This document shows, one piece after another, positions 2 through 7,336 of a stretch of 64,000 bases of DNA (positions are counted from its first letter, which is position 1; each line of letters opens with the position of its first letter). A program made the position numbers and the translations under genes. Under the pieces are notes generated by a model that worked only from the letters and a program-made list of their open reading frames with translations, had not been told where the DNA came from and did not search any database. The stretch spans positions 89,670-153,669 of the IMG/VR virus record IMGVR_UViG_3300032308_002775; one strand, given 5' to 3'. This stretch comes from a virus.

Positions 2-1138
2 ATCGAAGCGGACGAGCCCACGCTGGCCGTGTCTGTCGTTGACAACAGCACTGACGGCGACTGCAACAACCCGCCGGATTGTTCGTTCAAAATCGATATC
101 GATTTAGGAATTCCGACGCCCGCGCCGCCGCCGCCGTGCCCAGAAATTAGCGGAACGCTAACAGTTTATCCGTCAAATGAGCCTACTGGTTCGATGACGG
201 TAACGCCGTCAGAAGGTCCAAGCGGCGAATGCCGGTTCGACATTAGCATCAGTATTGGTGTGCCAACCGGAGCTATTGGCCCAACAGGACCACGCGGCGC
301 GACCGGCCCGGCCGGTCCGTGCCCAGAAATTAGCGGAACGCTAACAGTTTATCCGTCAAATGAGCCTACTGGTTCGATGACGGTAACGCCGTCAGAAGGT
401 CCAAGCGGCGAATGCCGGTTCGGCATCGCCATTAATATCGGCGTGCCGACTGGCGTTACCGGTTCCACTGGTCCTACAGGCCCGGCCGGAGCGACTGGTC
501 CCACAGGTCCCACAGGTCCCACCGGACCGACAGGCCCCACTGGCCCCACTGGTCCTACTGGTCCCACAGGTCCCACAGGTCCCACAGGTCCCACCGGACC
601 GACAGGCCCCACTGGCCCCACTGGTCCTACTGGTCCCACAGGTCCCACAGGTCCCACCGGACCGACAGGCCCCACTGGTCCTACTGGTCTTACAGGCCCG
701 ACTGGTCCCACCGGACCGACAGGCTCCACTGGTCCTACTGGTCCTACAGGCCCGACTGGCCCCGCAGGCCCGACTGGCCCCACAGGTCCGACAGGACCGA
801 CCGGCCCTACAGGCCCCACTGGCGCGACAGGCCCCACTGGCGCGACAGGACCTACAGGCCCTACAGGCCCCACTGGCGCGACAGGCCCCACTGGCGCGAC
901 AGGACCTACAGGCCCAGAAGGTCCGACAGGCCCAGAAGGTCCGACAGGCCCAGAAGGTCCGACTGGCCCGACTGGCCCTGAAGGGCCTACCGGTCCAGAA
1001 GGTCCGAGTGGCCCCGAAGGCCCAACTGGTCCGCCCGGGCCAGATTGCAATAAAGTGCCGTTTGACGTGATAACCAGTGTTTATTGCGACGGCGGCAATG
1101 TACACGGCACGGTAGCAACAATTTACGTGTGTGAATAA
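2..1138 (+). CDS. Collagen-like (Gly-Pro-Thr)n fibre protein, probably 5'-truncated by the window edge
   Basis: About 65 consecutive G-X-Y triplets (GPT/GAT/GPE). Cys-bracketed repeats [10 protein letters not shown]...GECRF. The frame is open from base 2. Confidence 0.8.
134..422 (+). repeat. Exact 106-bp direct repeat (134-239 and 317-422) in the collagen-like gene
   Basis: The block CCGTGCCCAGAAATTAGC...GAATGCCGGTTCG is identical at an offset of 183 bp. Confidence 0.9.
458..1042 (+). repeat. 9-bp-period collagen tandem repeat (GGN CCN ACN)
   Basis: Tandem ggtcccaca/ggccccact/ggcccagaa units. Confidence 0.9.
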
Positions 1139-1718
1139 TGAAATGCCCGAATTCACTACGCGAATTGTAGACTTTGGTCCATGCGAATGCTGCGCAACAA
1201 GCTCCAGCTCTAGCGACTCCCCGAGCTCCAGCTCTAGCGGGCCCCCTGGTACTGGTTGGGTATGCCCGCCGCTTACTGGCTGGGTATGCCCCCCAACCAA
1301 CGACGGTTACATTTGTACTGGCTATGTTTGCGTAAAAGAATGTCAATGCCCAACGTGCGATGACCCGTTTGCAATTACAGGCACATTTGACGGTATTGTT
1401 GCAATAGGCGTTTGTTATGGCGGCGTGTATATTGGCCAAAACACCCGCGACGATCTTTTCGGTAGCGGTGGATACGCGGCGTGGAACTACACAGCAACCT
1501 GTTTAAACGGCGATTGGTTGTTTGCCGCATCAATGTGTTTTTTTGATGGGGCAGGCTGCGTAACTGGCGCCAGCTATCGTGCCGTTGTTTTGTGTAAAGA
1601 CACCGACGAAGATGGATTACCGCGCGCAGGCACTATTAACCTTGAACGTGTAGACGACGGCGGGCCGCCCGCAGATGACTGCGAACCTGCCGCGCCGACA
1701 ATCACAATAACCAAATGA
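1131..1718 (+). CDS. Cys-rich protein with Ser linker, putative virion/fibre-associated
   Basis: Overlaps both neighbours; CECC motif, poly-Ser, many Cys. Confidence 0.55.
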
Positions 1719-2422
1719 ATATTGCTGTAGTCGCGCACTTGCCCATATTTTTGCCAGGCCAGCGCGCTGCGTTTGCGCGCTATGCGCCGCACGCTGATTA
1801 CACAGTTGTAGTTCCGCGCGGTTTAAGTCGCCTTATGCGTCCATACTGCGAAAGCGCTGAACTTGCGTACGAAGAAGCACCGCACGGAAGTTACCTTGCA
1901 ATCGTTGACTGGCTGGCGCAAAAAGCACAAGTGCCTACTCTCATTGTCGAGTGGGATGTTGTGCCAATTCGCCCCGTGGTGTTTTCTGCTGCGTGTTCGT
2001 ATCGCGGAAAACAGCACGCAAATATGCCTACACCCCCGCGGCGTTTTTATTACCCGAATATTTTGGCGTTTAACCCTGCCGTCGATCAGTACACGCCAAG
2101 GTATTTGTCAGCTAGCGCAGAACCGTTTTCAACACCATTTCGCGCGCTAGAGCACCGAATAATCGAAGCGGCCCATCCCGGCCTGCCGGACTGCTGTGCA
2201 GCCGCCGGGTTCTCGCTTATCGGCGATGAGTACGCGCACCATCTGCACGGCGCAATGCAAACACCGGAACGGGCTGCCTGCTGGGCAGCTGTTTTATACG
2301 AGATCGGCGCCGGGCGGCATCAAATCTTGCCGCCAAATAAATTTGACGTCGAGACTACACCGGCACCGGCGCAACAGGTAAAATTTACAGATATTCGCAC
2401 CGTTTACATTTGCGACAACTAG
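1715..2422 (+). CDS. Hypothetical protein, possible GT-A-fold glycosyltransferase-like
   Basis: ATGA-coupled to the upstream gene. LIVEWDVVPIRPV resembles the hhhDxDhhP strand of GT-A enzymes. Confidence 0.4.
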   Translation: MNIAVVAHLPIFLPGQRAAFARYAPHADYTVVVPRGLSRLMRPYCESAELAYEEAPHGSYLAIVDWLAQKAQVPTLIVEWDVVPIRPVVFSAACSYRGKQHANMPTPPRRFYYPNILAFNPAVDQYTPRYLSASAEPFSTPFRALEHRIIEAAHPGLPDCCAAAGFSLIGDEYAHHLHGAMQTPERAACWAAVLYEIGAGRHQILPPNKFDVETTPAPAQQVKFTDIRTVYICDN

Positions 2423-5427: not shown

Positions 5428-5434
5428 GGGGCGT

Positions 5435-7336
5435 GTGCCAGGCCCGCGGCGGTTACTACTGATTCACAAGCGGGCGCCTGGAGACACGGCCGTCTTGACG
5501 GCCCTGGTCAGGGACATTGCCCTGACCCACCCCGGGCAGTTTCAGATCGGCGTCGATACGCACGCCGCGGCGCTTTGGGAGAACAACCCCTACATCGTCA
5601 GCGCCAAGGAACTCCGCGACCATAAAGGGGTCGAGCACCTCAAGCTGACCTACGGAAAGGGGCTGCGGGACCAGAATCACGAGACCGTCCACTTTCTTGC
5701 CTATTTTCACAGGGACTTTGAGGTCCAGGCTCGGGTTCGTGTCCCGCTGACCCTGCCCTACCCAGACCTGCACCTGTCGGCCGAGGAGCGCTCCCAGAGG
5801 CTCGTAGAGGGCCGCTACTGGGTGTTTCTGTCCGGGGGCAAGTCGGACTTCACCGCTAAGGTGTGGGGCCAGGCAGCGTGGCAGGAGACGGTCCGGCAGC
5901 TGAGCGCCCTGGGTATCCCCTGCGTTCAGATCGGCGGTACCGAGAAGGGCCACTGGCACCCCGAGATCCAGGGCGCCCTGAACCTGGTCGGGCGCACCGG
6001 GCTGCGGGACTGGCTCCGCCTGATCTACCACGCCGACGGGGTCATCTGCGGTGTCACCGGGGCCATGCACCTCGCCGCCGCGCTGCAGCGCCCCTGCGTC
6101 GTCCTGGCAGGCGGCCGGGAGGCCTGGTGGTGGGAGGCCTACGTTCGGGAGAACGCCGGGCTGGGCGGCCTGGAGACGGCGCAGAAGCTTACTGTGCCGC
6201 ACCGCTACCTTCACACGATCGGGCTTCTGGATTGCTGCCAGGCCCACGGCTGCTGGAAGAACAAGGTGCTGCCCCTGAACGGCGACCAGTCAATCTGTAA
6301 ATACCCCGTCGTCCAGCCTGGCCAAGCAGTTCCTAAATGCCTGGATATGATTACGCCAGAGCACGTTGTCGAGGCCGTGATGAGCTATTACGAAGACCGC
6401 ACTCTGCCGCCCATCAAGCCGCTGGCGGAGGTCACGCGTTACCGCCCCGCGGCGTCAGAGGAGCCCGCCCCAGCGCTGGTGCTGGTTCCGGACGCAAAGT
6501 TTGAGCGGGCCGAGGCAGGCGTTCCCAATACCGTGATCCCCACCGGCGCTCCGGACAAAGATATCTTTGAGAATCCGGTCATCGGCGGGAAGTTCACTGT
6601 CTGCGTCCTGTTCTACGGGCCGAAGCAGTACCACCCGCTTCACATGCGCTGCCTGAACTCGATTATCTCGACCTGCCCGCCCAACCGAATCGACCTGCGC
6701 GTCGGTTCCAACGAGCTGTGCGAGGAGACAGCCGCGGTGTTAAACCGGCTCGTCGACCACGGAATCGTCACCAAGCATTATCAGCACGCCGAGAACGCGC
6801 TGAAGTACCCGGTGATGCGGGAGATGTTCCACGACTCGGAGTGCCCGATCACGACGAATTATCTGCTCTGGTTTGATGACGACTCGATCGCCGACAGAAA
6901 CCAGCAGTGGCTCACGCTGCTGACGCAGACAATCCTGGCCAACCCAACGGCCGGGCTGTTCGGCGCCGACATGACGATCCGCCTTGCGCCCAGTCAGCAG
7001 CAGCTCTACCGCACGCGGCCGTGGTTCAAGGGTCGACCTTTTCGTATGAAGAACAAGCGCCCGGCGCCAAACGGAGACAACACCGTGTTCGTGGCGGGCG
7101 GGTTCTTCTGCCTGAAGACCGAAGCGATGCGTGCCGCCGACGTGCCCGACGCGGCGCTTACGCACAACGGCGGCGACTATACAATCGGCGAACAGCTCTA
7201 TCAGGCCGGTTATGAGGTCGTCGGATGGAATCGACAGAAGCAGTTCATTCACACCTCGAGCGTCCCGCGGCGTGGCGAGAGCCAGCCGCATTTCGGCACG
7301 GAAAGGTGGCAGTCCACAACCGGAGACCGGCGATGA
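5435..7336 (+). CDS. GT9 (ADP-heptose heptosyltransferase-like) domain fused to a C-terminal GT2-like domain
   Basis: APGD, AKVW, NLVGRTGLRDWLRLIYHADGVICGVTGAMHLAAALQRPCVVL and CLDMITPEHV are GT9 hallmarks. The C-terminal half has CLNSI and LLWFDDD (GT-A DxD). Confidence 0.85.
   Translation: MPGPRRLLLIHKRAPGDTAVLTALVRDIALTHPGQFQIGVDTHAAALWENNPYIVSAKELRDHKGVEHLKLTYGKGLRDQNHETVHFLAYFHRDFEVQARVRVPLTLPYPDLHLSAEERSQRLVEGRYWVFLSGGKSDFTAKVWGQAAWQETVRQLSALGIPCVQIGGTEKGHWHPEIQGALNLVGRTGLRDWLRLIYHADGVICGVTGAMHLAAALQRPCVVLAGGREAWWWEAYVRENAGLGGLETAQKLTVPHRYLHTIGLLDCCQAHGCWKNKVLPLNGDQSICKYPVVQPGQAVPKCLDMITPEHVVEAVMSYYEDRTLPPIKPLAEVTRYRPAASEEPAPALVLVPDAKFERAEAGVPNTVIPTGAPDKDIFENPVIGGKFTVCVLFYGPKQYHPLHMRCLNSIISTCPPNRIDLRVGSNELCEETAAVLNRLVDHGIVTKHYQHAENALKYPVMREMFHDSECPITTNYLLWFDDDSIADRNQQWLTLLTQTILANPTAGLFGADMTIRLAPSQQQLYRTRPWFKGRPFRMKNKRPAPNGDNTVFVAGGFFCLKTEAMRAADVPDAALTHNGGDYTIGEQLYQAGYEVVGWNRQKQFIHTSSVPRRGESQPHFGTERWQSTTGDRR

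Follow-up and report, generated by a model that had tools for sequence, protein, structure and literature searches.

The window analyzed here, i.e., the whole stretch of 64,000 nucleotides (nt), represents the final 64 kb of a linear IMG/VR record of 153,669 bp (IMGVR_UViG_3300032308_002775, positions 89,670 to 153,669; estimated completeness 75%), hereafter designated G000. The record originates from an uncultured giant phage with a genome of about 200 kb and a G+C content of 60%, which is a jumbo phage of the Gram-negative type. The window opens within a fiber operon carrying the gene of a bifunctional glycosyltransferase of 633 amino acids (aa) (5435..7336, + strand), and this enzyme and its neighbors were considered as a candidate O-glycosylation system for the phage's own fiber-associated proteins. 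The gene and family of the 633-aa enzyme are designated GT, and the families of two small genes located 3′ of it are designated o154 and o192. Every open reading frame (ORF) named in the initial annotation of this DNA exists as described.

The first ORF (2..1138, +) encodes the C-terminal 378 aa of a collagen-like tail-fiber protein of 684 aa with Cys-rich flanks (Pfam Collagen, 102.7 bits; PHROG tail-fiber families), the full gene of which begins 916 nt before the window; the ORF contains 47 GPT triplets, and 72 G-x-y triplets are arranged in runs. The genes following it are co-oriented and joined by overlaps or by junctions of 4–32 nt, and no convincing promoter or terminator was found within this run. 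The first of them encodes a Cys-rich protein of 195 aa (1131..1718, +; 16 Cys), a candidate glycan acceptor with two SSSSS runs and an N-terminal tract [14 protein letters not shown]. It is followed by an ORF for a 235-aa protein (1715..2422, +) and by the gene of the main candidate acceptor, a Cys-rich fiber-associated protein of 802 aa (2426..4834, +; 14% Ser, 44 Cys), whose globular parts are linked by Ser tracts at residues 190–213, 330–349, and ~486–533. The motif SSVSSSSR occurs four times within the ~486–533 tract, in addition to three other Ser tracts, and the protein is weakly similar to the Ser-rich proteins that occupy this site in two related loci (L001 and L004). Directly before GT lies the gene of a 186-aa protein (o186; 4867..5427, +; translation probably starts at residue 20), whose N-terminal part is rich in Cys and resembles a zinc ribbon; homologs of this protein are found directly upstream of GT in loci L001, L002, and L004 and also in L122, and an ESM Atlas search returned only phage-only hypothetical families. 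GT is followed by the small conserved o154-family gene (7225..7689, +; the likely start near 7330 overlaps the GT stop codon), by a 98-aa protein with a bacterial Ig-like Big_1 domain (7686..7982, +; Pfam 37.8 bits at a cut-off of 34.9), and by the o192-family gene (7979..8557, +), whose 192-aa product is a candidate serine-tagged acceptor ending in PPSDSSSSEAL. Thus, the ORFs and the gene order bear out the initial placement of a GT9-like gene in the structural module, after proteins rich in potential acceptors, and the dozens of GPT triplets and SSVSSSSR tracts noted there are present. The 235-aa protein, tentatively named there as a GT-A enzyme, has a predicted GT-A fold of the GT8 or nucleotide-diphospho-sugar transferase type (ESM Atlas structural neighbors with template modeling scores of 0.60–0.65 over ~200 residues) and no match in Pfam, NCBIfam, or PHROG; it is therefore kept only as a lead to a possible third transferase of the operon.

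Runs of at least four Ser are expected by chance about 0.5 times in the genome, whereas 13 were observed in three proteins of the fiber operon, and all credible runs in the 153.7-kb record belong to three proteins of this operon. An SSSS of a 545-aa baseplate protein was rejected as a tag, since the motif containing it is folded and conserved. Two Ser runs also occur in an Arg/Ser-rich ORF of 300 aa (36261-37163, −), which looks like a spurious frame of a GC-rich genome; no strong ORF was found on the opposite strand across 35.8–37.2 kb. The o192 protein has a conserved core of a β-sheet and a long helix, and its disordered termini bear the Ser runs, according to the alignment and the AlphaFold2 (AF2) model (predicted local distance difference test (pLDDT) of 78.7, termini below 50). 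Some o192 relatives are fused to FN3-like or larger C-terminal domains.

The 633-aa protein matches PF01075 (CAZy family GT9) with 49.1 bits at a cut-off of 22 over residues 110–230. The AF2 model, built with 30 homologs (mean pLDDT 83.9), consists of two domains connected by a disordered linker, namely, a predicted GT9 domain of GT-B fold (residues 1–327, nt 5435-6415) and a GT-A domain (residues 367–627, nt 6533-7315) with a DDD motif at D481–D483 (nt 6875-6883). The N-terminal domain superposes on GT9 enzymes over 254–271 residues, with Z-scores of 22.9 for a Veillonella GT9 protein (PDB 3tov), 21.7 for WaaF (1psw), 20.3 for TibC, and 19.8 for WaaC (2h1h), while the GT-A domain gave Z-scores of 15–17.6 with BcsA cellulose synthase, hyaluronan synthase, SpsA-like enzymes, TarP, and GalNAc-T. 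No Pfam GT2 match above the threshold was obtained in the 633-aa protein, and the split C-domain gene of locus L025 reached 19.9 bits at a cut-off of 23.3. The two domains are encoded by separate adjacent genes in L025 (9932-12175) and L028 (9992-11997). The enzyme is a fusion of GT9 and GT-A packed translationally inside the fiber operon, and the GT9–GT2 fusion of the initial annotation holds as GT9 plus GT-A on the strength of the AF2 model and the structure matches. Invariant in the 30 homologs, down to 48% identity, are G16–D17, K142, the motif GGREAWWWE, D481–D483, and the five Cys residues of a knuckle within the GT9 domain (C267, C268, C273, C288, and C302; nt 6233-6340), which corresponds to the Cys cluster recognized initially. 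G16–D17 and K142 align with G12–D13 and K192 of WaaC, and by this alignment D17 would be a residue of the catalytic type and K142 one of the phosphate-binding type.

The GT9 domain was compared with annotated Aah/TibC genes from plasmids, i.e., bacterial autotransporter heptosyltransferases (BAHTs; TIGR04414, PDB 4RAP and 4RB4), and with waaC, waaF, waaQ, and waaU of E. coli K-12, which act on lipopolysaccharide (LPS). The NCBIfam scores of the fusion were far below the equivalog cut-offs for all of these (WaaF TIGR02195, 34.1 bits vs. 134.6; WaaC TIGR02193, 33.3 vs. 185.3; BAHT TIGR04414, 16.9 vs. 200), and the PDB profile search (E ≤ 10) found WaaF (34 bits) and WaaC (20.7 bits) and did not find TibC. 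In hhalign comparisons, the alignment with the LPS enzymes (probability 98.2, 214 columns) runs from the N-terminus, where residue 7 of the N-lobe aligns with residue 2 of WaaC, to the GGR motif before the knuckle, and the alignment with BAHTs (probability 97.9, 268 columns) extends through the Cys region. C268, C273, C288, and C302 align with the Cys columns of the BAHT iron finger (motifs GCW, C..P, and C..ITxxxV), and in TibC, Cys-339, 342, 358, and 370 bind Fe and contact the protein substrate (PMC4358343). Thus, a four-Cys knuckle resembling the iron finger, and putatively a metal site, is present in the phage enzyme and not in WaaC, WaaF, WaaQ, or WaaU. The N-terminal β-barrel of TibC is absent, since the model opens with the GT-B N-lobe and TibC aligns only from residue 90. 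The maximum-likelihood tree contained a BAHT clade and a clade of the phage family (both with 100/99 support), while the LPS enzymes branched without resolution; being unrooted and having long branches, the tree shows only that the lineage is separate. Of the kinship with TibC/AAH proposed at the outset, the alignment of the Cys cluster with the iron finger was thus retained, while membership was not (16.9 bits, no β-barrel, own clade). The GT9 domain belongs to a third clade, almost confined to phages, in which an N-lobe of the LPS type is joined to a four-Cys knuckle of the TibC type.

This family comprises 679 homologs, mostly in metagenome contigs of up to 228 kb. A search of 185,579 prokaryote genomes yielded only three marginal matches, none of them informative on function; two look like phage contigs binned into metagenome-assembled genomes of Alcaligenaceae and Aquaspirillum. 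The third is a GT9 fragment on a 912-kb Planctomycetota contig (L035, 10007-10973; 51% identity), which is broken into two ORFs, lies beside an integrase-like gene, and is probably a decayed remnant of a mobile element.

These comparisons bear directly on an alternative explanation, namely, that the GT9, GT8-like, GT25, and GT-A proteins, together with the heptose-pathway enzymes HldE and HldD encoded further along, alter the LPS core or another surface glycan of the host and thereby could block superinfection or keep progeny phage from sticking to cell debris. GT9, GT8, and GT25 are the classic families of LPS-core synthesis, and this counts against a protein-directed system; the WaaF and WaaC scores outrank that of TibC/Aah, only WaaF and WaaC were returned by the PDB search, and the N-lobe is colinear with that of WaaC almost from the first residue. 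In addition, the pathway requires a host that already makes heptose. The phage gene, however, lies within the virion operon and not among early or moron genes, carries the BAHT-type knuckle that is missing from the LPS enzymes, and scores far under all LPS equivalog cut-offs; a protein-specific BAHT relative is encoded in the same genome, and remodeling of the envelope leaves the joint loss of serine-run proteins, tags, and enzymes described below unexplained. Remodeling of the host surface is therefore regarded as unlikely, and glycosylation of the fiber-associated proteins is the preferred reading.

The ADP-heptose pathway of the phage is partial. The HldD gene, encoding ADP-glyceromanno-heptose 6-epimerase (40045..41013, +), exceeded its cut-off (TIGR02197, 300.5 bits vs. 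274.6) and is present in the complete GT-bearing relative G001 and in G003. An HldE-like gene (heptose-7-phosphate kinase/heptose-1-phosphate adenylyltransferase; 49731..51245, +; phrog_7878) was matched in both domains, with scores below the equivalog cut-offs (NF008454, 224.6 vs. 521 over residues 3–503; TIGR02199, 150.3 vs. 181.5; TIGR02198, 110 vs. 345). GmhA and GmhB were also looked for elsewhere in the genome, and no match was found in G000 (a 75% complete record) or in the near-complete G001, G003, G006, and G018. Since both are absent, the phage can only boost the ADP-heptose pathway of the host, and the initial wording of a system fed by phage hldE/hldD has to be narrowed accordingly.

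Two genes are co-inherited with HldE, both of them initially listed as GT-A genes. The first, described as a clear case at 52322, encodes a 324-aa protein (52157..53131, +) with only a sub-threshold Glyco_tranf_2_4 match (21.3 bits at a cut-off of 27.5), so it is treated as a possible GT-A; its homolog with 80% identity adjoins HldE in G001. The second, a tentative case at 53116, encodes a 288-aa protein (53041..53907, +), which is also present in G001 and for which no match was found in Pfam, NCBIfam, PHROGs, or PDB, so that its listing as a GT-A gene has no support. Paralogy of both genes with the GT-A domain of the fusion was rejected, as no similarity was found. HldE and these two genes sit among replication and recombination genes, which favors a further alternative, DNA glycosylation, in which sugars on hypermodified bases would serve to evade restriction. 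However, no thymidylate-synthase-like (hydroxymethylase) gene was found in the record, itself 75% complete; the fusion is located in the fiber operon, and its co-variation with serine runs would be left unexplained. We know of no heptosylated DNA, and this alternative is considered very improbable compared with the glycosylation of fiber-associated proteins.

A whole-record Pfam search for GT9 revealed two further genes, P0121 and P0122, both located outside the window. P0121 (G000:C1:2717-3640, 86.0–87.0 kb before the window start) encodes a 307-aa relative of TibC/Aah (TIGR04414, 119.8 bits, E = 1e-34), which is 31–38% identical to annotated plasmid O-heptosyltransferases (Aah/TibC) adjoining AIDA-type adhesins. 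It keeps the CxxC..C..C pattern, lacks the N-terminal β-barrel, and is located after a sulfotransferase gene (20-874) and before fiber-like genes of 1002 and 640 aa. Judging by sequence, P0121 is a true BAHT relative. P0122 is a standalone 333-aa paralog of the GT9 domain of the fusion, has the same Cys knuckle, and falls into the phage clade of the tree. It belongs to a second glyco cluster (G000:C1:18047-25642, 64.0–71.6 kb before the window start), which also includes genes of a 534-aa protein with a Methyltransf_24 domain, a HAD-like 431-aa protein, and a GT25 (63.1 bits).

The gene context in related phages was read from IMG/VR loci, and relatives without GT were found via the terminase and o192. 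In 31 viral contigs (39–85% identity), GT occupies the same position, closing the baseplate/fiber block on its 3′ side, in the order of baseplate genes, variable fiber genes, GT, o154-like gene, and o192-like gene. The fiber genes at this locus vary, being collagen-like, containing 46–53% Ser, or bearing Ser/Thr runs of up to 67 residues. Such runs or collagen repeats were found in 32 of 161 ORFs within 8 kb upstream and in 9 of 327 ORFs far downstream, an enrichment that is weak on its own because fibers are often low-complexity. In GT-less phages, o154 homologs come after the fiber.

A more informative comparison was provided by G035, a complete GT-less relative with a 71% identical large terminase (TerL). 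At the corresponding site, G035 and G028 contain baseplate genes, one giant collagen fiber, o154, and o192, and they lack GT, the Ser-rich protein, and the Ser tag of o192. Absent from G035 are the fusion, the 186-, 235-, 195-, and 802-aa genes, both other GT9 genes, the GT25 and HAD-like genes, the methyltransferase and sulfotransferase, HldD, HldE, and the 52157 and 53041 genes. These absences are distributed over five or more separate sites, at each of which the flanking genes are kept; for example, o380 directly abuts the exonuclease gene at the HldE position. Genome-wide, the number of runs of at least four Ser was 15 in G000, 45 in G001, and 2 in G035. The Ser tag of o192, defined as a 10-residue window containing four or more Ser, was found in 26 of the 27 loci where GT is adjacent and in 3 of the 28 where it is not. 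One of these three loci stops at a contig edge, and the others belong to a clade with a standalone GT9 or HldE elsewhere on the contigs (in G034, a standalone GT9 about 77 kb away; in G033 and G037, HldE). Among near-complete genomes, neither this GT9 family nor HldE was found in any of the nine GT-less ones, and HldE was found in six of the nine GT-bearing ones. Consequently, the GT genes, HldE/HldD, and the serine-run proteins co-vary among related phages, as judged from the presence and absence of genes, and their co-absence at many sites argues for functional coupling, though it represents one or two events.

Extreme Ser tracts were observed in the clade of L122 (1-6531) and L160–L162, which includes a 1703-aa fiber with a Ser/Thr run of 145 residues and o192 proteins with poly-Ser tails of more than 40 residues.

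The proposal that GPT triplets serve as acceptors did not withstand the same comparison. The triplets do not track the enzyme, since GT-less relatives keep Thr-rich collagen with GxT triplets (33–48% Thr at position Y), and they were rejected as evidence for GT-linked acceptors. Their persistence without the enzyme makes the serine runs the likelier acceptors.

On the basis of these data, we lean, with modest confidence, towards the view that the fiber operon encodes a late protein O-glycosylation system for the phage's own fiber-associated proteins. According to this view, host GmhA and GmhB would make heptose phosphates from sedoheptulose-7-phosphate, and more ADP-L-glycero-D-manno-heptose would become available through phage HldE and HldD. 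Heptose would be transferred by the GT9 domain, with D17 acting as the base and K142 on the diphosphate, and the putative TibC-like Cys4 metal knuckle would assist in holding the protein substrate. The presumed acceptors are Ser residues in the disordered serine runs of the 195-aa and 802-aa proteins and in the o192 tails; the fused GT-A domain, metal-dependent through its DDD motif, would add a second sugar. The TibC/Aah-like GT9, the GT9 paralog, the GT8-like protein, GT25, the methyltransferase, and the sulfotransferase might lengthen or decorate glycans, whether on these fibers or on others.

A more general proposal is offered only tentatively, as possible rather than probable. The phage-only GT9 lineage, usually GT-A-fused, may constitute a portable serine-tag system that reads short disordered Ser runs at the ends of, or between, domains of unrelated particle proteins and builds heptose glycans on them; these would be fed by HldE/HldD and further methylated or sulfated, and enzymes and tags would behave as one accessory trait, acquired and lost jointly.

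Several results, besides the LPS-core affinities of the enzyme families, weigh against the view favored here. The N-lobe sequence is equally near to LPS heptosyltransferases and to BAHTs, and tblastn revealed no cultured relatives in 50,697 cultured-phage records. In the tree of o192, GT-less genomes group in what is essentially a single nested clade, GT presence changes about once, and the co-absence therefore amounts to one or two events in evolution; with n = 1 independent pair of GT against the Ser tag on this tree, the paired test has no statistical power. In the L122/L160–L162 clade, with its long poly-Ser tails, the 186-aa homolog is present and GT is missing at the site. No match was found for the o192 fold (best Z-score 5.8, best BFVD E-value 0.03), and we infer, rather than observe, that the Ser-run proteins are located in the virion. 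Finally, HldE is missing from three complete GT-bearing genomes, and HldD from most; the absence of HldE means that ADP-heptose supply by the phage is not obligatory or that the donor may differ.

The last two points also favor a different explanation, in which proteins are glycosylated with another nucleotide sugar or the targets lie outside the virion (assembly factors or secreted proteins), and HldE/HldD serve only the TibC/Aah-like enzyme. The heptose-contacting Asp of WaaC (D261) aligns with Val207 of the phage enzyme, and the BAHT-like gene lies 87 kb away, adjoining other fiber genes. On the other hand, none of the near-complete genomes compared has HldE without also having this GT9 family. 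G001 has HldE and HldD, and a tblastn search at a threshold of E 1e-5 found no match to the BAHT-like gene in it, so ADP-heptose should have some other user there. The Cys-rich, Ser-linked build of the candidate acceptors and their collagen neighbor suggest extracellular fibers. A different donor or target is accordingly considered fairly unlikely, and heptosylation of the phage's own fiber-associated proteins is retained as the preferred view.

Among known systems, the closest analogs are TibC/Aah, with protein O-heptosylation described for bacterial autotransporters (PMC4358343). The phage enzyme shares with them the GT-B fold (271 residues aligned in the superposition on TibC), the four-Cys knuckle before a C-terminal helix with aligned motifs, the positions of the catalytic Asp and phosphate Lys, and a gene adjoining a Ser-rich presumed substrate. 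It differs in having a full LPS-type N-lobe, no β-barrel, a GT-A fusion, and a separate clade; the acceptors of TibC/Aah are autotransporter β-helix repeats, whereas those presumed in the phage are disordered serine runs. With WaaC and WaaF (PDB 2H1H and 1PSW), which are its best PDB sequence matches and close structural ones, it has in common the G-D motif at the N-terminus and the conserved Lys of 'AKxW', but unlike them it has the Cys knuckle, a Val at the D261 position, a phage-only distribution, and a place in the virion operon.

SgtA, which is encoded beside its substrate, O-glycosylates GPT collagen repeats of BclA3 and accepts Thr and Ser (PMC7157674). The SgtA/BclA3 system and BclA spore glycoproteins resemble the locus in having GPT collagen repeats with an adjoining glycosyltransferase gene. 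However, SgtA is an N-acetylglucosamine transferase, and members of the phage group that lack the transferase still have GPT/GxT collagen, so the best-supported acceptor here is not collagen. In the serine-rich repeat adhesins of Gram-positive cocci, GtfA/B and the two-domain enzyme dGT1 modify long Ser-x repeats; those systems likewise comprise several transferases, including one fused two-domain enzyme, but they belong to the GT4, DUF1792, and GT8 families, use hexose donors, and have a dedicated secretion pathway.

Freeman et al. are said to have found in 2023 that GT-A type enzymes modify the C-termini of mycobacteriophage capsid and tail-tube proteins. A passage of PMC12582341 states, citing Freeman 2023 (PMC10527164), that mycobacteriophage virions are glycosylated. 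In those phages, too, glycosyltransferases are encoded beside structural genes, and O-glycosylation of virion proteins by them is presumed or shown; the present case differs in that GT9 is fused to GT-A, the ADP-heptose pathway is partial, serine-run tags are involved, and the phage is a jumbo phage of the Gram-negative type.

In the remainder of the genome, a baseplate wedge gene is located about 11 kb before the window start, and the TerL gene (PHROG) lies at 20061-22022 on the minus strand. Replication and recombination genes (exonuclease, SbcCD-like pair, helicases) occupy 51–64 kb of the window; the pair, a Mre11/SbcD-like phosphoesterase and a Rad50/SbcC-like ATPase, lies at 54537-57819, downstream of the HldE region. 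Just upstream of HldE, at 47427-48644, is a gene for a GSU2086-family protein (96.5 bits, below the cut-off), which is not assigned to the glyco set because it is conserved even in GT-less relatives.

Literature searches revealed neither a report of virion heptosylation nor any phage-encoded heptosyltransferase described as modifying proteins of the phage. To our knowledge, bacterial autotransporter adhesins are the only proteins known to be O-heptosylated, and phage virion glycosylation has been documented experimentally only for mycobacteriophages, with other types of enzymes. What is new here is a distinct phage GT9 lineage fused to GT-A and accompanied by serine-run tags and a partial ADP-heptose pathway. 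If the proposed reading is true, it would provide a compact pair of enzyme and tag for glyco-engineering; E. coli already makes ADP-heptose. For the phages themselves, it would mean that a large group of environmental jumbo phages decorate their fibers with heptose-containing glycans by means of a new GT9 lineage and simple serine tags, which would have a bearing on phage adsorption, on shielding from proteases and immunity, and on the use of host sugar-nucleotide pools by phages.

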